Source of the DNA: Bdellovibrionota bacterium
GTDB taxonomy: Bacteria > Bdellovibrionota > FAC87 > UBA2466 > JACKAF01
Direction of reading: 5' to 3'
Assembly (NCBI GenBank): GCA_041391485.1
Contig: JAWKNY010000002.1
Location: 128,245 to 192,244, forward strand
DNA length: 64,000 bases
A program made the position numbers and the translations under genes. The stretch's first letter is position 1. Each line of letters starts with the position of its first letter. Below, piece after piece: positions 13,661 to 45,639 of the stretch. The notes under the pieces are model-generated. The model worked only from the letters and a program-made list of their open reading frames with translations, did not search any database and was not told where the DNA came from.

Positions 13661-15574
13661 ATGAAAGCCCAAATCGTGCTTGAAAATGTGGGGATGCACT
13701 TCCCAAACCGCGTCCTTTTTGACGAGGTGAATTGGACCCTTTACGAAGGCATGCGCGTAACGCTGGCGGGGCGCAATGGCTGCGGCAAATCCACGCTCAT
13801 GCGCATTATGGCGGGCCGTTTGGACCCCCACGAAGGGCAACGCTCAATCGTTGGGGGGCGAAACCTCAAGCTGGGCTATCTCGACCAGAACCTGCTGGAC
13901 TCGGCAGTTATCGATACGCAGACACTGAAGGGGAGCAACCCTTCCGTAGTCGACTACGTCAAACACCGCATCCTTGAGACCAAAGCCGAGGAAGAAGCAG
14001 AGCAGGACTGGCAGATAGAGCGAGTTTTGGGCGGCCTTGGATTTGATAGCGCCAAGCAAAACGGCTCCATTCACGAGCTGAGTGGCGGGTGGTTGCTGCG
14101 CATGTTTATCGCTGGCGCCATCTTGAAAAAGCCGGACGTGCTGCTTCTGGATGAGCCCACGAACCATCTGGATCTTTCGTCGATTCAATGGATCGAGAAT
14201 TTCCTCACGAAGGAATACCAAGGGAGCTTGGTTCTGATTACCCATGACGTGGCGCTACAACGGCGGACGACGGATGCGCTAGCGATTGTACACGGCGCCC
14301 GCTTCTATTTTCGCAAGCACCAGAAAGATTACTTATCCTTCCGGGACTCCCTCGGGGAAGAAGCTGTCTTGCTCGAAAAAGGCTTGGAGCGCCTTCAAAA
14401 GAAGCACAAAGAGATCATGGAATTTGTGCAAAAGTACCGCGCCAAGGCCCGATCGGCGTCGCGCGCACAAAGCAAGCTAAAGAATGCTGAGGAAATTGAA
14501 GGCGAGATGAACGCTCTTAAGGAGCGCCTCTCTCAAATCCACGGCACTGCGTACAACCTGCGGTTTCGCTTCCGCTCGGAAAACCTCGGACCGAAGTTTC
14601 CTTTGATTCTGAACAACATCTCGTTTCGCTATGAAGAAGATGGCCCGCAGATCCTAAAAGGAATTAACCTGGACACGAAACGCGGGCAGAAGATCGCCAT
14701 CATCGGCGACAACGGGGCGGGAAAAACTACTTTACTGAATGTGATTGGGAGAAACCTCAAGCCCCAAACGGGCTCCGTAAAAACGGGCAAATGGGTGGAA
14801 ACGGGTTTCTTCGGGCAGCACCAACTCGATCAGCTTTCACTGGAAGATTCTCTTCTGGACAATCTCAAACAGTGTGTCGACAACGTCTCCCCCGATCAGC
14901 TTCGTGCGTGGCTCGGAGCCTTTGGTTTTTCGGGAACCGATGAAATTTCAAAACCCGCAAAAGTTCTTAGCGGAGGGGAAAGAGCGCGCCTCGCGTTGCT
15001 GCGTATTTTGGTGACCCCCGTCAACCTGATCCTGCTCGATGAACCGACCAACCACTTGGATATAGAAACCAAGGAGCTTCTGAAGTCTGCCATGCAGGAA
15101 TTCCAGGGAACCGTGGCTTTTGTTTCACACGATAGAGAATTCATCAGCTCCATCGCGGATCGCATTCTTTATCTGTCTCACGATCACGAACTCACCGATC
15201 ACATCGGAAACCTGGAGAGCTTTTTCGAAAAGTACCCGCACCTGGGCTCCCAGATGGACAAGCTAAAAAAGGAAGCCCCGAAGAAAGAAAGCGTTGGGCT
15301 CAGCTACGAAGAAAGAAAGCAACGCCGGAACCGCGCAAAGAGCCTGGAAAAACAGATTGGTACACTCGAAGAGGAAATTGACCAGCAGGGGAACGAGAAG
15401 AGCGCTCTGCAGGAAGAAGCTGATCAGGCAAGCTTTTACGCGCCGGAAAACGAAGGCCGACGCCAGGAAGTATTCGCACGGTTAACCGATTTAGAAAGTT
15501 CCATCACAAAAAAAATGATCGAGTGGGAAAGGCTCAGTTCGGAGCTGGAGTCGCTGGCTGAGGAACCGGCTTAG
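13661..15574 (+). CDS. ABC-F family ATPase (two ABC domains, no TM domain)
   Basis: 637-aa ORF. Walker A GRNGCGKST and GDNGAGKTT, signatures LSGGWLLR and LSGGERARLAL, charged coiled-coil C-terminus. Confidence 0.9.
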   Translation: MKAQIVLENVGMHFPNRVLFDEVNWTLYEGMRVTLAGRNGCGKSTLMRIMAGRLDPHEGQRSIVGGRNLKLGYLDQNLLDSAVIDTQTLKGSNPSVVDYVKHRILETKAEEEAEQDWQIERVLGGLGFDSAKQNGSIHELSGGWLLRMFIAGAILKKPDVLLLDEPTNHLDLSSIQWIENFLTKEYQGSLVLITHDVALQRRTTDALAIVHGARFYFRKHQKDYLSFRDSLGEEAVLLEKGLERLQKKHKEIMEFVQKYRAKARSASRAQSKLKNAEEIEGEMNALKERLSQIHGTAYNLRFRFRSENLGPKFPLILNNISFRYEEDGPQILKGINLDTKRGQKIAIIGDNGAGKTTLLNVIGRNLKPQTGSVKTGKWVETGFFGQHQLDQLSLEDSLLDNLKQCVDNVSPDQLRAWLGAFGFSGTDEISKPAKVLSGGERARLALLRILVTPVNLILLDEPTNHLDIETKELLKSAMQEFQGTVAFVSHDREFISSIADRILYLSHDHELTDHIGNLESFFEKYPHLGSQMDKLKKEAPKKESVGLSYEERKQRRNRAKSLEKQIGTLEEEIDQQGNEKSALQEEADQASFYAPENEGRRQEVFARLTDLESSITKKMIEWERLSSELESLAEEPA

Positions 15575-16621
15575 TATCCTCCAAACCTTTTTTGAGTTGC
15601 GTGCGCAACTGACCACAGGCCGCTGCCACATCGCGCCCCGGCTACGCCGGTAGGTCACCGTATAATACCGATCCATCAGTATTTTCTGAAAGCGCAGCAC
15701 GCGTTCTTCCGAAGGCCGCTTGAATTCCACAAACGGGTTTTCGTTGTAAGCGAGAAGATTAATCTTAACGGGGATACCCGCCAGAAGTTTCGCCAACCGA
15801 CGCGCGTCCTCATCTGAATCATTGATGCCATCGATAAGAAGGTATTCAATGGTGATGCGTTTGCGGCCTTTCAGACGCAGGTTGCGGCACACCGTCATCA
15901 ACTCTTCCAAAGGGTATTTTTGGTTGATGGGCATGATCTTAAGACGTTGCTCTTCTGTCGTTCCGTGAAGCGAAATGGCGAGCATTCCCAAATCATCGTC
16001 AATAAACTGCTGAATGACGGGCGTCACGCCGACCGTGGAAACCGTGATGTGTTTTTTCCCAATCTGAAAACCGTTGGGGTGCTGAAAGATCTGCAAGGCC
16101 TTTCGGACTTCCGTGTAATTATCGAAAGGTTCGCCCATTCCCATCACCACGATATTGGTGACGGGCTTGGGAGTCGGCACGGAGATGAGCTGATCCACAA
16201 TCTCCCAGCTCTTCATGTTGCGGATAAAACCCATATAGCCGGTAGCACAAAAGCGGCAGGCCATCTTGCAACCCACTTGCGTAGAGATGCAAAGGGTCGC
16301 CCGATCTTTGGCCGGGATGTAGACCGATTCCACTGTCTGGCCATCTTCCAAAGTAACCAGGTACTTGACCGTGCCATCCGCCGATTCGTGCGCAACCTCC
16401 ACCTTGAGCTTGGGCAAGGTAAAGCGGTGGGCCAACTCATCGCGGAAGGATTTGCTGAGATTGGTCATCTCGGAGAAATCCGACACCCGCTTCTGGTTAA
16501 TCCAAAGAAATAACTGTCGTCCACGGAAAGAGGAATGGCCCAGGCTCTCGGCAAGGCCTTCCAACTCCTCGATGGGAAGTCCTTTTAGAACGGGGCTACT
16601 ATTTTCGGCAGAAGCGAACAA
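15534..16621 (-). CDS. rlmN: 23S rRNA/tRNA m2A methyltransferase RlmN (radical SAM), C-terminal frameshift in this assembly
   Basis: Radical SAM motifs CKMACRFCATG and VMGMGEPFDN. The track ORF (15491-16621) turns to nonsense after RRSRG. Shifting frame at 15633-15640 (CCCC run) restores DVAAACGQLRTQLKK... and a TGA at 15534-15536. Confidence 0.85.
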
Positions 16622-17284
16622 TCAACACTCACTTATCACATTGGGCAAATGGTTCAGCAGATCGCCAAATTGCTTGAGCTGCTGAGAATTGGGAACTTGT
16701 ACACCACTTAAGCCATAACCCGCACCCAAAAAACTCACTCCCGCACGAAGCGCGCACTCCCGATCCACGTTGTGATCGCCCACAAACCAGGCCTGGTCAG
16801 GCTTGACCTGGAGCGTGTCCAGCACTTCCCAAATATGCTCCGGGTAGGGCTTGAAGCGGGTCACGGAGTCCGGGCCCGCGATGCGATCAAATTCAAACCC
16901 GGGCAGGTAGTGCTCGACCGATTTGACGGCCAAATCCGTGAGCCGGTTGGTCACAATCCCGAGCCTCACGCCTGGGTGGCGCCGCAACGACTCCAGCGTT
17001 TCGCGCACGCCGGGATACAGCTGGCCGACGAACTCAAACTCCCCGTAATGCTTGCGGTAGAGACCCACCAGATCCGACATCGCCATTTCGCCCGCCACGT
17101 CTTCGAGTGTGTTTTCCATCAGGTACTCAACGCCCTTACCGACGAAGGCGCCGATGGTGTCGTTCGCTAGAGGTGGCAAATCGTGCAAAACACGAATCTT
17201 GTTCACCACTCCCGCGATATCGGGAAGGCTATCAATGAGCGTACCGTCTAGGTCGAATAAAACTGCCAGAGATGTCAAAACCAA
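16622..17284 (-). CDS. HAD-superfamily phosphatase (phosphoglycolate phosphatase-like)
   Basis: 220-aa ORF. Motif I LFDLDGTLIDS, motif II IVTNR, motif IV VGDHNVDRE. It abuts the rlmN start. Confidence 0.75.
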   Translation of the reverse strand: MVLTSLAVLFDLDGTLIDSLPDIAGVVNKIRVLHDLPPLANDTIGAFVGKGVEYLMENTLEDVAGEMAMSDLVGLYRKHYGEFEFVGQLYPGVRETLESLRRHPGVRLGIVTNRLTDLAVKSVEHYLPGFEFDRIAGPDSVTRFKPYPEHIWEVLDTLQVKPDQAWFVGDHNVDRECALRAGVSFLGAGYGLSGVQVPNSQQLKQFGDLLNHLPNVISEC

Positions 17285-40010: not shown

Positions 40011-41152
40011 GCCAAAGGAAGTACCGCCCCTGCAGCAATACTTTTCTCAGATGGGGCCGCCGCGTTTACGCCCGTCGCAAACTTGAAGTAATTCAGCACC
40101 GCAATGCCTGTATAGGTAACGGGAATGTAGTGAAAACCTCGGCGGATCAAAAACAACGCCCACCTTGCGGCAAATTTGCCCGAGATAAGGCCGGGTCCCA
40201 TCCGCGAGGTAAACGCGGCTGGGCAGATGTGACGGTAGATAAAATCATTGTCTCGGTAGTAGTGACGCGCGTAGCGGGCGTAGGCGCCTTTGGAAGCCTT
40301 ATAGATCTTTAAGTCTGCATTTCCCCAGTGAGAGTGGGATTCAATTTCCGATCCCACCGCCCAGACCTCGACCGGAAACCGGCGGCCTTTCGCGGCTTTC
40401 TTAAAGCGTTCAATCAGCGCAACAAACGAGTCACAATTGGCCTGCATCGCATGTTCAACCTTGGAACCATGCGCGAGGACCAAGATGTCCGTTTCTGGCA
40501 AGACTGCTTCAATTTTGGAGTAGTCCTCGTACGTCCAATCGCTGCCGAAAGAAAAGGTAAGGATAGATTTTACCCCGGCCTTTTCTAAACACTCCACCAT
40601 GCCCGAGCCAAAAGATCCGGAAGCTCCCGTGATGGCCACCCGGCGTCCTTCCAATGGACAACCTGTTCCCGCTATCCAGTCGAAGAGGCGCAGCATGGAT
40701 CCCATGTACTGATCGGGGTAAACGTGATGAAGCGCGTGGTACTTGGGCCCAACCATCGAACCTGGGCCCGGCTGGGGGAGTATCTCAAAACGCACGTGGT
40801 TGATGTCCCGCCCGCGCAGATAAACAGCCCCAACAAAGGTCCCGGTATGCACCAACACGACAAGGACAACAGCCAATGGTTCAAAAAAGAAAAGCCCCAA
40901 GAGCGTCCCCAAAACGTGCGTCAGGTACTCGGGAATAAGATGATAAACAAGATTGCCCCGGACCTTTTCCTCATGAAAATCCAAAGCCATATCCAAAAAA
41001 TCGTGGTGCGCTTGGTGTAGGGTGGCCCCAAAACGTAGAAGTCGGGACTTGGAGCGCGCGAAACGGTGCAACGCAAAATGGACTATGTCAAAAAGGAAGG
41101 TCCCAATCGCATAAAGCACGAAACCTTGGACCGCCACCGTGAGCCAATACAT
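40007..41152 (-). CDS. bifunctional fatty-acid hydroxylase/sterol-desaturase-like membrane domain plus short-chain dehydrogenase domain
   Basis: His boxes HFALH, HQAHHDF and HALHHVYP in the N-terminal TM half. The C-terminal half has VAITGASGSFGSG (Rossmann). Confidence 0.75.
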   Translation of the reverse strand: MYWLTVAVQGFVLYAIGTFLFDIVHFALHRFARSKSRLLRFGATLHQAHHDFLDMALDFHEEKVRGNLVYHLIPEYLTHVLGTLLGLFFFEPLAVVLVVLVHTGTFVGAVYLRGRDINHVRFEILPQPGPGSMVGPKYHALHHVYPDQYMGSMLRLFDWIAGTGCPLEGRRVAITGASGSFGSGMVECLEKAGVKSILTFSFGSDWTYEDYSKIEAVLPETDILVLAHGSKVEHAMQANCDSFVALIERFKKAAKGRRFPVEVWAVGSEIESHSHWGNADLKIYKASKGAYARYARHYYRDNDFIYRHICPAAFTSRMGPGLISGKFAARWALFLIRRGFHYIPVTYTGIAVLNYFKFATGVNAAAPSEKSIAAGAVLPLA

Positions 41153-41259
41153 ACTCTTCCGCCTCGCTTAGACGAGCCGAATGTAGCATAGGCCTGGGGA
41201 AAACGCCTAGCAAACGGGCACCCTTTACATTTTTATTGGCCAGCAGTACTGTCCCACCC

Positions 41260-41610
41260 ATGAAACCCATCGATTGGCATTATCACCGCAAGGGTTGAAT
41301 GACCTGCAAGCGCGCGGAAGAGTTTCTTTCGCAAGAAAAGATACCGGTCACTACCCAAGTCGACGCAAAGAAGGAGCGCATTGGTGCGAAAGACGCCGTC
41401 AAGCTCGCTCGCTCTGCCGGTGAATTATGGGTCGCCAAGGGCAAGAAGTTCCTCCACTTCAATCTAAAAAAGGACAAGCTCACCGACGCTGAACTTGAAA
41501 AAGTACTCCTCGGACCTTCCGGTAACCTGCGCGCTCCCACGCTGCGCAAAGGCAACGAGCTTTTCGTGGGTTTTCACCCGGAAGCGTTCAAACCTCGCCT
41601 GCTCCAATAG
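41260..41610 (+). CDS. ArsC/Spx/YffB-like thioredoxin-fold protein with an in-frame TGA (41296-41298) at the first position of the CxxC motif; candidate selenoprotein or point-mutated gene
   Basis: ATG 41260 gives MKPIDWHYHRKG-TGA-MTCKRAEEFLSQEKIPV...LGPSGNLRAPTLRKGNELFVGF. The track ORF starts at ATG 41299, immediately after the TGA. Confidence 0.55.
41314..41332 (+). promoter_or_regulatory. hairpin 16 nt downstream of the in-frame TGA (possible bacterial SECIS)
   Basis: GCGGAAG-AGTTT-CTTTCGC: a 7-bp stem (one G-U pair) with a 5-nt loop containing GU. Confidence 0.3.
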
Positions 41611-41723
41611 CTCTTTCGACTGTAGATTTTTCCACTGACGCGTAGCGGTTCCTCAAACACAAACTTGTGCCTACACTCCGGCCAACGTAGCGGCAACTGG
41701 GGCCGCTTGGGTCTGGGGGGAAC

Positions 41724-42998
41724 ATGGGGCAGCTTCGGTTTGTACTATTAGGATGGGTTTGTCTTTCGCTTTCGGCTTTGGGAGTGCCAAAGAACTACCG
41801 CACATTCCTGGAAGCGCTCCGCGCAGATTCCGCCATGGACGAGGACGGAGACAACTTCTCCTTTGTTGATTTAAAAGAGCTCATCGAAAGCCGTGATCTG
41901 CGAAATGTGGAAGACGTACTGCCCCTACTTCCCGAAAACTTGCGCACTCATTTTGTTCTCATCGAAGACTCCAAAAGCCTACAAGGAGCCACAGAAAAAA
42001 ATCCCCGAGCGGTGCTCTACGCTCGGCGTGGGCGTTTCGTTCTCACATTCAACGGAGACCCAACTCAACGCGGGTACCGATCCCTCGAAATGATGGAGTA
42101 CCAGGAGGACAGTCATTCCTACGAGTTTAGACGGATCGACTTTCCACAAAGCGGCCCCGCTGTATTCTCGGAAGCCAATCCCAAACGGTGCCAAGGTTGT
42201 CATCAAAACCCGGCGCGGCCTAACTGGGGGCGTTACCCCTTTTGGCCCGGAGCCGTCGGGGAGAAAGACTCCCTGGATGACAGAGCGCGAGCCAAGTTTA
42301 ACCGGTTTATTCGCGATGGTGCCACCCACCCACGTTACCGTCACTTAAAACGCGCTGAAAACTTGGCTGCGATTGAAGCCCAAACACTAAAATTCACGCC
42401 GGCCTTTGAGCTAGACGTACTGTACGACATCATTGATGAAGACCGGCTCTCTCACTGGATTCAGCAAACAGAATCCTACGAAACATACAAATACGCGATC
42501 TTGGCGGCGCTCGTAGACTGCGACAGTCTGGTGGACTTTATTCCCAGCTCATCTGTTCACGGTGGAGCGGCACAGATGTCGGTCCTGCTCCGCGATACCA
42601 AGCAAGTATTGAGCGCTATTCCTGAACCCAACAAGCGCCTGCTGGATGAACTTGAGTACCGTATTACTGCAAATGTACGCTACGTGTTTGAAAGACGAGG
42701 CATCTCGATCCGATCGTGGGCAAAATCTTTCGAAACGGAGTACCTCATGACAACCGTTTCTGGTGTCTTCTTTGAGAACATCGCCTGGAAACTGCGCAAC
42801 TCGGATACGGAGCTTGAAGCCGTTCCGTTCGAGTACGCCTCTCTCTTACGGCATTACGGCCGCATTCAATTCCCCACTCTTTATAAAGAGGAGGATGCCG
42901 CTAACATGCGCCGCAGTTGCGCCAATTTAAAGCAACAAAGCCTTGCGTCTTTTTCCAGCGCGGCCACCCGGAAAAGCGCACGGGACGCGGGTTTTTAG
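41724..42998 (+). CDS. secreted protein with a single CxxCH haem-binding motif
   Basis: 424-aa ORF with signal peptide. CQGCHQNPARPNWGRYPFWPG. No further family assignment. Confidence 0.5.
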   Translation: MGQLRFVLLGWVCLSLSALGVPKNYRTFLEALRADSAMDEDGDNFSFVDLKELIESRDLRNVEDVLPLLPENLRTHFVLIEDSKSLQGATEKNPRAVLYARRGRFVLTFNGDPTQRGYRSLEMMEYQEDSHSYEFRRIDFPQSGPAVFSEANPKRCQGCHQNPARPNWGRYPFWPGAVGEKDSLDDRARAKFNRFIRDGATHPRYRHLKRAENLAAIEAQTLKFTPAFELDVLYDIIDEDRLSHWIQQTESYETYKYAILAALVDCDSLVDFIPSSSVHGGAAQMSVLLRDTKQVLSAIPEPNKRLLDELEYRITANVRYVFERRGISIRSWAKSFETEYLMTTVSGVFFENIAWKLRNSDTELEAVPFEYASLLRHYGRIQFPTLYKEEDAANMRRSCANLKQQSLASFSSAATRKSARDAGF

Positions 42999-43060
42999 CC
43001 GGACCATTGACGGTCGGCATCCGAACTGCTGTGCTGGGCGCACTTCACAGGAGGTGTCCC

Positions 43061-43672
43061 ATGTACCGATCCCCCATCCTCGGACTATGCGCTCTCGTCT
43101 TCAGCGCATCCACATTCGCAGTAGAGCCAGAGCTTTTTGCGGACAGCCAACCCAATCGAGGCAACGTGGTCGCTGTTCGGCGCGACGTTCGACCGTGGCA
43201 TCTCGATCTTCTTGGCCCGTGCAAACGCGATCTGTCTAGCTGGAAGCAGAGTAAGCCACAGTCACATGTCTTTGCATATTGCCGAGTCTCCAATGTAGTC
43301 CCCAAGAATGTAGAGAAGGCGGGACTTCAATTCCACCAGGAGGGCATTTCTCTCTCCGAGACGGTGAACATCGGAAAGTACAAGATCGTAGTTGAGGCGC
43401 GCATGGAAAGCGGCACCACTTTAAGGCTGGACGGCTGGCTATACAACTTCGAGTACAGTTCCTATTCAGGAACGGATTCCGAACAAGCCAGCGCCAAACA
43501 GTACTTTGCGAGCGCGGTGGAGAGTGCAATTTCCAAATGGAAGTCCAAAAACACGCCGCTCGTTCACTACTCTTTGTCCTACAGCACGCGAAATGACTTT
43601 CAATTCGATGGAACGGCGTCTGGCGAAGGCGGCGAAAAGCGGCTTTATTCCACTTTTGACAAAGAAGAGTAA
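43061..43672 (+). CDS. secreted hypothetical protein
   Basis: Start at ATG 43061, preceded by AGGAGG. Signal peptide MYRSPILGLCALVFSASTFAVEP. The upstream part of the track ORF overlaps the previous gene. Confidence 0.5.
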   Translation: MYRSPILGLCALVFSASTFAVEPELFADSQPNRGNVVAVRRDVRPWHLDLLGPCKRDLSSWKQSKPQSHVFAYCRVSNVVPKNVEKAGLQFHQEGISLSETVNIGKYKIVVEARMESGTTLRLDGWLYNFEYSSYSGTDSEQASAKQYFASAVESAISKWKSKNTPLVHYSLSYSTRNDFQFDGTASGEGGEKRLYSTFDKEE

Positions 43673-43950: not shown

Positions 43951-45639
43951 GTGTTAAAAAGGGGTTCGGGAACGGTGACAAGGCTGTCCCACATTCTACT
44001 TCTCTTTATATGTTGGTCCTACGCACCCGCGTGGGCGGTGGAAGAACCCACCAAATTGCACGACACTGCGCGAGGCGTAGGGGAAGCCCAAGATACGGGT
44101 ACCGGCACGAGCCCCAGCACGAAGGGCGACGAAGACACGCAGAAAGACGAAGATCCCAAGGAAAAACTGCGCCGACGCGCCAAAGATCTGGCCAATAAAC
44201 TTGTTAATGCCGAAGCGCTCAAGAGCGGCGAAGGAAAATCCGCTGAAGAAAGGTCCAAAGCCGCCAACGAAGACTCCGACAACATGGGTGACTTCATCGG
44301 AGAGGTGAAAGGCGAGGACGGCAAGTTCGACGAAGAGTTCGCAACAGCGGCCGACGAAGTCCTTACCGAGATCCAGACCGATCTCCAAACTCGACTCGAC
44401 AGTTTGCCACCAGGCCCCTCACCTGAGCGCACGGAGCTGCAAGCTCAGCTGGGGCGTGTTGCCGCGCTTCAAGGTTTTATTACGAACAACGCGCCGCCGG
44501 GAAGCGCCCTGGCACGCGGTCCTTCTGGCGGCACCGGCAGCACAGTTGCGACGGGCACAACGCCCGCGGGCACTTCCACGAATTCGAACGGCAGCACCTT
44601 GGACATTGCTGGCAAGTCAGGCGGCACATCCGATCCGGGTAAAGGCACTGGCAACAGTCAGGTCGCCGCCAATCAAAGCAGCACCAGCCAACCCCTCAAG
44701 AGTTTGCCTTTACCTTCTACGGCTTCTACGACTTCTACGACTTCTACGACAACAACACCGCAAGCATCGCAACCTGCAGTCGCACAGTCGCCACCGCAAT
44801 CGACTAAGAATGCACAGCCGACCAAAAAGCCCGTTGCGACGCCTCCTACTATCTATACGGCAGCAGTGGACAAAGCGACTCAAGCTATCAAGGCTTTGGA
44901 AACAAGCTTCTTCGGACCCAAGGATTCGGTCAAATCCGAAACTCCGAAAACCGAAGTGGCGAGTGCTCCCAAAACAAAAGAAGGTGTGGTCACCGCCAGA
45001 GAGTCCACCAAACAACGGCCCACTGCGGAGCCGCCAAAGGCCTTCACGCCTCCCGCTCTAAAAACAGTCGTCGCGAGTGTCAGTCCGAGCACGGCTAACT
45101 CCAACGGCACGGGCGGTTCTTCGACTGCGTTTACAGGCGATGAAACTTTCGACTTCAATAAGATTGAGTCGTCGCCTCCGGCCCCCATTGTGGCGGCAGG
45201 GGCAAGGCCTTACGCACCCGAGGCTCCTCGCGGTGTAACTACCATTGAGCAGGAATTCTTTGAGCCCACAGCAACCACCTCGCTAAATAGCAAACCGGTG
45301 GTTGAAGTCGCTAGCACGCCCGAGGCGACGGAAAACTCGGACGTAGTTTCCTTGCGCACGGTTGCCAGCTCTAGGGGCGCGCTACGTGAGTTTGCGAGCG
45401 AAATGAAAAAGGGTTTGGATAATCTGAAGGAACGCCTCACCCAGGAAAGCGAACCGGAACCGGAGACGACTTCGATTTCGGACGCTCGCCCTGTTACTCC
45501 GGCGAAACCCTCAACGAGCTCTGCTACTCTGGAAACGCAGATGGCGAGCACGCCCAGTACCGCCGAAGCCAAGCCCGGCGGATCCGTCCTCCAATTCATG
45601 AACCTCATGAAACAGAAAGCCCAGGAAAACCCCGTCTAG
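43951..45639 (+). CDS. secreted low-complexity Ser/Thr/Pro/Ala-rich protein
   Basis: 562-aa ORF with GTG start and signal peptide LSHILLLFICWSYAPAWA. Acidic coiled N-terminal part, then long S/T/P/A/G tracts. Confidence 0.55.
   Translation: MLKRGSGTVTRLSHILLLFICWSYAPAWAVEEPTKLHDTARGVGEAQDTGTGTSPSTKGDEDTQKDEDPKEKLRRRAKDLANKLVNAEALKSGEGKSAEERSKAANEDSDNMGDFIGEVKGEDGKFDEEFATAADEVLTEIQTDLQTRLDSLPPGPSPERTELQAQLGRVAALQGFITNNAPPGSALARGPSGGTGSTVATGTTPAGTSTNSNGSTLDIAGKSGGTSDPGKGTGNSQVAANQSSTSQPLKSLPLPSTASTTSTTSTTTTPQASQPAVAQSPPQSTKNAQPTKKPVATPPTIYTAAVDKATQAIKALETSFFGPKDSVKSETPKTEVASAPKTKEGVVTARESTKQRPTAEPPKAFTPPALKTVVASVSPSTANSNGTGGSSTAFTGDETFDFNKIESSPPAPIVAAGARPYAPEAPRGVTTIEQEFFEPTATTSLNSKPVVEVASTPEATENSDVVSLRTVASSRGALREFASEMKKGLDNLKERLTQESEPEPETTSISDARPVTPAKPSTSSATLETQMASTPSTAEAKPGGSVLQFMNLMKQKAQENPV
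44714..44749 (+). repeat. 4 tandem copies of the 9-nt unit CTTCTACGR inside the S/T-rich gene
   Basis: cttctacgg cttctacga cttctacga cttctacga, read directly. It encodes the STASTTSTTSTT tract. Confidence 0.8.

Follow-up and report, generated by a model that had tools for sequence, protein, structure and literature searches.

Selenoproteins related to arsenate reductase (ArsC) and carrying a UxxC motif, in which U is selenocysteine (Sec), have been in the literature since 2006–2008. 'ArsC-like' selenoproteins appeared among the bacterial selenoprotein families in 2006 (PMC1794560), the Global Ocean Sampling analysis listed both 'Arsenate reductase (ArsC) 1, UxxS' and 'Arsenate reductase 2, cd03032, UxxC' (PMC2398784), and the table of a 2022 review contains 'Arsenate reductase-like protein, COG1393, UxxC' (PMC9312934). 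These Zhang/Gladyshev families were detected by computation, through pairs of Sec and Cys forms and a bacterial selenocysteine insertion sequence (SECIS) downstream (PMC1794560, PMC2398784, PMC9312934). Here we analyse a gene in a 64-kb stretch of DNA from a Bdellovibrionota metagenome-assembled genome (MAG); this stretch is referred to as the window, and all positions are counted from its first letter. With high confidence, 41260–41610 (+) is the gene of a 116-residue selenoprotein of the curated NCBIfam family NF041106, which belongs to the ArsC/Spx/YffB superfamily. The initial annotation of the window, made from the sequence alone, had proposed a selenoprotein here and pointed to a known bacterial class of such proteins, which is borne out by NF041106 and by the names 'ArsC-like' and 'Arsenate reductase 2, UxxC' in these papers. 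Because the NF041106 name is attached to this very open reading frame (ORF) and the class has been published, the finding is correct but already known: the Sec assignment is almost certain, the family is curated, and the gene is an ordinary find.

The full coding sequence (CDS), as defined by ORF translation, the NF041106 match and comparison with a sister genome, comprises 116 codons followed by the stop TAG at 41608–41610, with UGA read as Sec13. ATG 41260 opens MKPIDWHYHRKG, and these 12 N-terminal codons (41260–41295, +), which correspond to strand β1 and the HRKG turn and are conserved in frame, lead into the in-frame TGA at 41296–41298 (+). The column of TGA and Cys codons in the relatives marks this TGA as the predicted Sec codon, U13 of U-M-T-C. 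The next codon, ATG 41299, opens MTCKRAEEFL..., and the read-through product is MKPIDWHYHRKG-U-MTC..., 116 residues in all. Cys16, the partner residue of UxxC, is encoded by TGC at 41305–41307 (+) and is kept by at least 90% of the aligned proteins. On re-reading, every coordinate of the initial annotation (ATG 41260, the 12 codons, the TGA, ATG 41299 and a hairpin at 41314–41332) was exact.

A protein-collection search, which returned 92 candidates and covers near relatives of the query only, revealed that the 103-aa ORF is already deposited as GenBank MEZ4749509.1 under the name 'ArsC family (seleno)protein', from a Bdellovibrionota MAG and a contig of 257,261 nt. The CDS of MEZ4749509.1 begins at Met14, so that 13 residues with the Sec codon and strand β1 are missing from it; in the public record, this start is the sole error. 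The counterparts in sister MAGs (MCB0418248.1/MCB9253746.1 and MCB0403711.1) are also 103 aa long and are labelled 'hypothetical protein', and for the sister copy on a 795-kb contig (locus L001) the upstream codons and the TGA were confirmed in the DNA.

For the NCBIfam and Pfam scans of the read-through protein, Cys was substituted for the TGA. NF041106 (ArsC_rel_Se_1, 'ArsC family (seleno)protein') is matched at 141.2 bits, compared with a curated cutoff of 85, and the match is full length, with residues 4–110 aligned to positions 1–107 of the 107-position profile. The ORF from the second Met alone is also above this cutoff at 113 bits, but it covers profile 12–107 only. Pfam ArsC (PF03960) is matched by the read-through protein at 26.7 bits against a cutoff of 24, while the truncated ORF falls below threshold at 19.1. 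This match, together with the finding that the nearest PDB folds of a homologue's model are Spx and YffB, supports the ArsC/Spx/YffB-type thioredoxin fold to which the protein had been assigned. The read-through protein does not reach the cutoff of the Spx/MgsR model TIGR01617 (32.2 bits, cutoff 75.05), and there is no arsenate-reductase equivalog model among its NCBIfam matches at E <= 1. Full-length homologues of 114–125 aa read DW[HY]YHRNGC-x-T-C with the Cys exactly in the TGA column, so that the HRNGCxTC of the Cys homologues confirms the placement of Sec at the first Cys of a CxxC that follows a β-strand.

The codon at this column was compared across 80 loci, the best of more than 470 relatives found in a scan of species-representative genomes. 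In this orthologue alignment, which the initial annotation had suggested, the codon is TGA in 67 loci and a Cys codon in 13 (TGC in 11, TGT in 2), with no other codon present. Judging by record titles, the Sec forms come from Planctomycetota, 'Deltaproteobacteria', Binatia, Verrucomicrobiales, Rokubacteria/Methylomirabilia, Acidobacteriota, Gemmatimonadota and Obscuribacterales, from the cultured myxobacterium Minicystis rosea (Myxococcota) and from a Bdellovibrionaceae MAG. The strand [IV]DWxYHRxG before the TGA is conserved in frame: W (−7) and R (−3) do not vary among the 67 sequences, while 63 of them have D at −8 and 63 have G at −1. An ATG lies 11–14 codons upstream of the TGA in 56 Sec forms. 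The residue after U is most often Thr (29), followed by Val (11), and it is Met in only 7 of the 67; most members could therefore not restart at the 'second Met'.

Obscuribacterales/Melainabacteria MAGs hold both forms, with Cys at loci L013, L014, L061 and L070 and Sec at L035 and L060, which suggests switching between Sec and Cys within one order. Three further records, L023 (CAMBFS010000010.1), L036 (CAYTVL010000001.1) and L031 (CAZQXG010000005.1), are titled Klebsiella pneumoniae, Enterobacteriaceae and Alcaligenaceae, respectively. A 'Deltaproteobacteria' MAG (L022) carries a copy almost identical to the one in L023, and the L036 copy is closely related to those in 'Deltaproteobacteria'/Binatia MAGs (L018, L025). 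All three organism labels look unreliable, the comparison of copies covering L023 and L036.

A SECIS-like hairpin at 41314–41332 (+) was characterised by RNAfold, by the contrast between Sec and Cys forms, by covariation and by synonymous recoding. It starts 16 nt after the TGA and reads GCGGAAG(A)-GUU-(U)CUUUCGC. The 7-bp hairpin with GU in its loop that had been noticed in the initial annotation does exist, and RNAfold gives it 8 bp including one G-U, pairing 41314–41321 with 41325–41332 (G41314-C41332 to A41321-U41325). The apical loop GUU (41322–41324) is at +27 to +29 counted from the U of UGA, i.e. 24–26 nt past the UGA, and the distance range of the bSECISearch model is ~16–37 nt. A possible lower helix is predicted in the minimum free energy (MFE) structure (41300–41350, +), between UGACC at 41300–41304 and GGUCA at 41346–41350; it is identical in L001, but not consistently present in other loci.

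The hairpin is conserved in, and specific to, the Sec forms, which agrees with its earlier description as a SECIS-like element. The typical Sec-form stem-loop is GCGCAAGA-GUU-UCUUGCGC at +19 to +37, a fixed distance from the UGA, and a sub-group has CCCAGG-AGUU-CCUGGG, one register off. At least 6 consecutive base pairs at the hairpin site were found in 63/67 Sec forms vs 0/13 Cys forms, and the Obscuribacterales/Melainabacteria Cys forms L013, L014, L061 and L070 keep no hairpin. GU at +27/28 is present in 61/67 Sec forms vs 4/13 Cys forms, and the mean local MFE is −10.0 kcal/mol for Sec forms compared with −3.6 kcal/mol for Cys forms (Mann–Whitney p = 1.7e-8). Base pairs of the stem show compensatory changes in the Sec forms: pair 21–35 is GC in 49, CG in 9, UG in 3, UA in 2 and AU in 1, and pair 26–30 is AU in 33 and GC in 16. 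Pair 22–34 is CG in 62 and GU in 2, the latter being the window and its sister L001, where replacement of Gln by Glu on one side is accompanied by replacement of Ala by Ser on the other. None of 500 column shuffles gave a covariation score as high as that observed. RNAalifold on the 67 Sec sequences returned only a weak 4-pair consensus (−1.33 kcal/mol), because two stem registers, with 3-nt and 4-nt loops, coexist.

As the stem lies over the conserved peptide A-Q-E-F-L-A with near-palindromic codons, each sequence was recoded synonymously. With uniform codon choice, the mean z was −2.5 for the Sec forms and −0.2 for the Cys forms, and 56/67 Sec forms but 0/13 Cys forms were in the top 5% of their own synonymous recodings. 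With a null of family codon usage, in which the signal is already contained, the Sec-form mean z was −1.7. The coding sequence also differs between the two forms at codon 9 after U (41320–41322): in Sec forms this codon is GAG or GGG, for Glu or Gly, and provides the G of the loop, while Cys forms mostly encode Asp or Ala and three of them encode Gly, Glu or Ser. The loop G is accordingly found in 65/67 Sec forms vs 4/13 Cys forms, and a conserved G is a feature of bacterial SECIS elements (PMC1794560). The amino-acid choice at codon 9 thus appears to be dictated by the RNA element. Taken together, this pattern is what would be expected of a bacterial SECIS.

Three Planctomycetota Sec forms with the peptide S/A-D-A/D-F-L-E/A (L053:2269–2316, L067:3034–3081 and L068:3034–3081) are without the usual GCGCAAGAGUU hairpin. 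L053 and L067 have a long stem instead, of up to 14 bp, with an apical 3-nt loop CCU that contains no G, and L068 has a weaker local fold. These loci may represent a different SECIS class within the same family.

Comparison with the sister locus L001 (Bdellovibrionaceae bacterium HK-STAS-BDEL_A-1, JACKAF010000001.1), which keeps the TGA and shares 87% DNA identity over the region, showed that 47/117 codons differ, of which 43 are synonymous and 4 non-synonymous. The gene is therefore under strong purifying selection. This extends to the 12 codons before the TGA, with 3 synonymous and no non-synonymous changes, while in the 40 nt before ATG 41260 identity falls to 24/40, with indels further upstream. 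The longest run of identical codons, codons 19–33 (41314–41358, +), starts exactly at the hairpin, and an identical run that long anywhere in the gene has p = 0.011 in a permutation test. The absence of any difference over 41314–41358 indicates that synonymous sites are constrained at the expected place of the RNA element. That two independent MAGs have kept the TGA, a compensated hairpin and unchanged synonymous sites speaks for an element in use.

For a structural view, an AlphaFold2 model was made for the Cys homologue P0005 (53–54% identical), standing in for the read-through protein. The model has a mean pLDDT (predicted local distance difference test) of 93.7 and shows a strand (3–9) and a turn, then C13 at the N-terminus (N-cap) of helix 14–25, so that the modelled C13 is in the classical thioredoxin-fold CxxC position. 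Its nearest solved folds are Spx (6gho, 1z3e), YffB (1rw1) and 'ArsC-related' proteins, with template modelling (TM) scores of ~0.5 and 20–24% identity, and the best PDB sequence matches are 2m46 and 1rw1 (E = 0.004–0.02). The model also contains a β-hairpin, strands 55–60 and 63–68, equivalent to 41422–41463 of the window.

From these features and the established bacterial Sec pathway, we infer how the product would be made and how it would work. Translation would start at ATG 41260, and UGA 41296–41298 would be recoded as selenocysteine, with the hairpin at 41314–41332, whose GUU loop is 24–26 nt past the UGA, recruiting SelB-GTP-Sec-tRNA(Sec) to the ribosome. The resulting U13-M-T-C16 would be located at the N-terminus of helix α1, directly after strand β1 of a thioredoxin-like fold. 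Sec13 would be the attacking nucleophile and Cys16 the resolving residue, in a cycle via a selenenylsulfide. The fold and motif suggest that the product is a stand-alone oxidoreductase of the thiol/selenol-disulfide type.

Several results weigh against a selenoprotein. Within the 64-kb window, ARAGORN found no tRNA-Sec and tblastn with the E. coli proteins found no selA, selB or selD; the same SelA/SelB/SelD search over all 80 loci gave nothing real, with one 37-bit SelB match in L062. In Bdellovibrio bacteriovorus, the best studied species of the phylum, selD and ybbB are present but Sec decoding is absent (PMC1273633), so that taxonomy gives no assurance. The fold of the window hairpin as a single sequence is not beyond chance (z = −1.42; 13/200 dinucleotide shuffles at least as good), and the significance of the hairpin therefore comes only from comparison. 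In that comparison, a slide control at −2 gives a covariation of 0.200 vs 0.228, so the covariation count alone is weak, and it is the Sec-vs-Cys contrast and the synonymous-codon test that carry the argument. Against recodings drawn from family codon usage, the hairpin of the window ranks no better than 7%. No Rfam family was found for the element, either in a permissive scan of 40800–42000 or in a gathering-threshold scan of the window, where only tRNA-Gly was reported. Finally, the support for every member of the NF041106 subfamily is computational.

Some of these results bear on two explanations that accept the gene but question Sec or its signal. In one, the UGA stands for an amino acid other than Sec, through reassignment to Trp or Gly or through near-cognate Cys/Trp read-through after loss of the Sec machinery, as the missing machinery in the window and the situation in B. 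bacteriovorus could suggest. However, a global reassignment is excluded by the window itself, in which TGA is an ordinary stop and terminates 11 of the 39 open frames with 250 or more codons, and the homologues have only Cys at the column, never Trp or Gly. In addition, the hairpin is maintained here by a double change from C-G to G-U, and the zero synonymous divergence of its region relative to L001 would be unexpected for a disused element, which leaves this explanation highly improbable. In the other, the hairpin has no RNA function and is a by-product of the near-palindromic codons (GCN CAR GAR UUY CUN GCN) that encode the peptide A-Q/E-E-F-L-A/S. The overlap of the stem with conserved residues, the slide control, the weak RNAalifold consensus and the 7% rank of the window hairpin are all in its favour. 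Against it, synonymous recodings of the same peptides fold much weaker (56/67 Sec forms at or below 5%), the Cys forms show no such excess over their recodings, and Cys forms with similar peptides (AQDFL, TQAFL) never reach 6 bp. The use of Glu/Gly in Sec forms vs Asp/Ala in Cys forms, the loop G that goes with it, and the zero-divergence run exactly at the hairpin also speak for an RNA element, and we consider a mere by-product very unlikely.

The other two explanations had been raised by the initial annotation and do not survive the comparison of loci. A 103-residue protein from ATG 41299, with the TGA ending a short meaningless upstream ORF, is what the gene callers chose in MEZ4749509.1 and in two sister MAGs. 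This product stays above the NF041106 cutoff, and an AAGGG is indeed present 5 nt before ATG 41299, as noticed before. The AAGGG, however, falls in a conserved motif, HR[KNP]G, where it is contained in the codons for K and G, and the product would be without profile 1–11, i.e. the first redox residue and strand β1. In-frame conservation of the 12 upstream codons holds in 67 sequences from many phyla, 60 of which have no Met after the TGA, and these codons carry only synonymous changes relative to L001, with identity collapsing just upstream of ATG 41260. A start at 41299 is thus only a very small chance. The remaining explanation takes the TGA for an error of sequencing or assembly, or for a recent mutation from TGY, in what would be a Cys-form gene or a fresh pseudogene. 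Errors are possible in MAG contigs, and 13/80 relatives do have TGC or TGT at the codon, but the TGA recurs in an independent MAG of the same lineage (L001) and in 66 other species representatives. The excess of synonymous over non-synonymous changes points to a gene under selection, and the window carries the hairpin of the Sec forms, which no Cys form has. The L001 comparison in effect rules out both a read error and a fresh pseudogene, and we give this explanation next to no credence.

The surroundings of the gene were examined by a Pfam scan of 10 adjoining ORFs. The neighbours include a divergent fatty-acid-hydroxylase-domain gene, a Crp-family regulator, a metallo-β-lactamase-fold protein, a TauE exporter and an OPT transporter, with a pyridine nucleotide-disulphide oxidoreductase ~6 kb upstream. 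Several neighbours have no Pfam match, and one has only a sub-threshold Kelch-repeat. No arsenic-resistance Pfam domain was detected in these 10 ORFs, which thus do not form an ars-operon context. Across the 80 loci, no neighbour family is conserved: real clusters extend to at most 11 loci, from related Planctomycetes, and any that are bigger consist of antisense or low-complexity ORFs. The gene context therefore gives no functional clue. Three consecutive downstream ORFs (41724–42998, 43058–43672 and 43951–45639, all +) are without a Pfam match, and the first of them (41724–42998) has a hydrophobic N-terminus that is signal-peptide-like by eye.

Upstream of the gene, a possible promoter (41223–41252, +) consists of the conserved block CTTTACATTTTT, with TTTACA at 41224–41229, a 17-nt spacer and TACTGT at 41247–41252. 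L001 shares the block and also has, after an equal spacer, a TAnnnT hexamer (TAGTCT), while the DNA flanking them has diverged. The candidate promoter ends 7 nt before ATG 41260 and no Shine-Dalgarno sequence is visible; speculatively, such a promoter would make the mRNA leaderless. A consensus promoter scan called no promoter for the gene, and the only terminator-like site called is on the minus strand inside the CDS, with none following the gene. A window-wide scan for in-frame TGA next to C/S/T residues listed 79 sites and was too noisy to inform. One of them, a 'C-U-L' site at TGA 16622–16624 (−) within 15491–17284 (−), ...ISEC-TGA-LFAS..., is not Sec: by eye from the translation, this TGA is the stop of a HAD-phosphatase-like gene, with an RlmN-like radical-SAM gene next in frame.

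The chief value of the analysis is an annotation correction, as MEZ4749509.1 is without its predicted catalytic selenocysteine. Since both the window and the sister records were deposited without the Sec codon, the selenoproteome of this lineage is under-counted. The 67 Sec and 13 Cys forms also provide a clean comparative picture of a bacterial SECIS written into coding sequence, down to the preference for Glu/Gly (GAG/GGG) over Asp/Ala at the codon of the loop G. If the selenoprotein is true, it predicts a Sec-decoding trait in this Bdellovibrionota lineage, unlike the type species B. bacteriovorus. The TM of only ~0.5 to Spx, YffB and ArsC structures would place the subfamily on a structurally distant branch of the superfamily. 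It is conceivable, although unlikely, that NF041106 is a selenoenzyme subfamily with its own substrate, distant from Spx, YffB and ArsC; this idea draws on the TM of ~0.5, the mid-region β-hairpin and the presence of Sec in 67 of the best 80 species representatives.

Compared with known systems, the hairpin resembles the SECIS of E. coli fdhF in being located within the CDS just 3′ of the UGA, at a fixed distance and with an apical G(U), but there is no sequence similarity between the two, and SelB binding in the window is a prediction. With the glutaredoxin-coupled ArsC of the plasmid R773 type, the window protein shares the Pfam family PF03960; it differs in having no match to an equivalog (E <= 1) and no arsenic-resistance domain among its 10 neighbouring ORFs. 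YffB (PA3664, 1rw1), the 'ArsC-related' 2m46 and 2kok are the best PDB sequence matches and have the same overall fold and size, although with E-values of only 0.004–0.05. In YffB and the Brucella protein 2kok the motif has a single Cys (C-D-T-M), while 2m46 has a full CxxC (C-T-T-C). Spx, the redox-sensing regulator of Bacillus subtilis that binds RNA polymerase (1z3e, 6gho), is the best structural neighbour, with its CxxC at the same N-terminal position. Spx nevertheless differs from the subfamily, at ~21–24% identity, a TM of ~0.5 and 32 bits to TIGR01617 against the cutoff of 75, and the mid-protein β-hairpin of the P0005 model (55–60, 63–68) is not seen as such in the matches. The ArsC-like selenoproteins of Zhang/Gladyshev (PMC1794560, PMC2398784, PMC9312934), like the window protein, have an ArsC/Spx-superfamily fold with Sec first in UxxC; likened to NF041106 by description, they may be the same subfamily or a sister one, and the second described family is UxxS, not UxxC. 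With NF041106 itself, the window protein agrees in the position of U/C-x-x-C and in the GPSGNLRAP and VGF motifs, and the only difference is the deposited CDS starting at Met14, which is nothing substantive.

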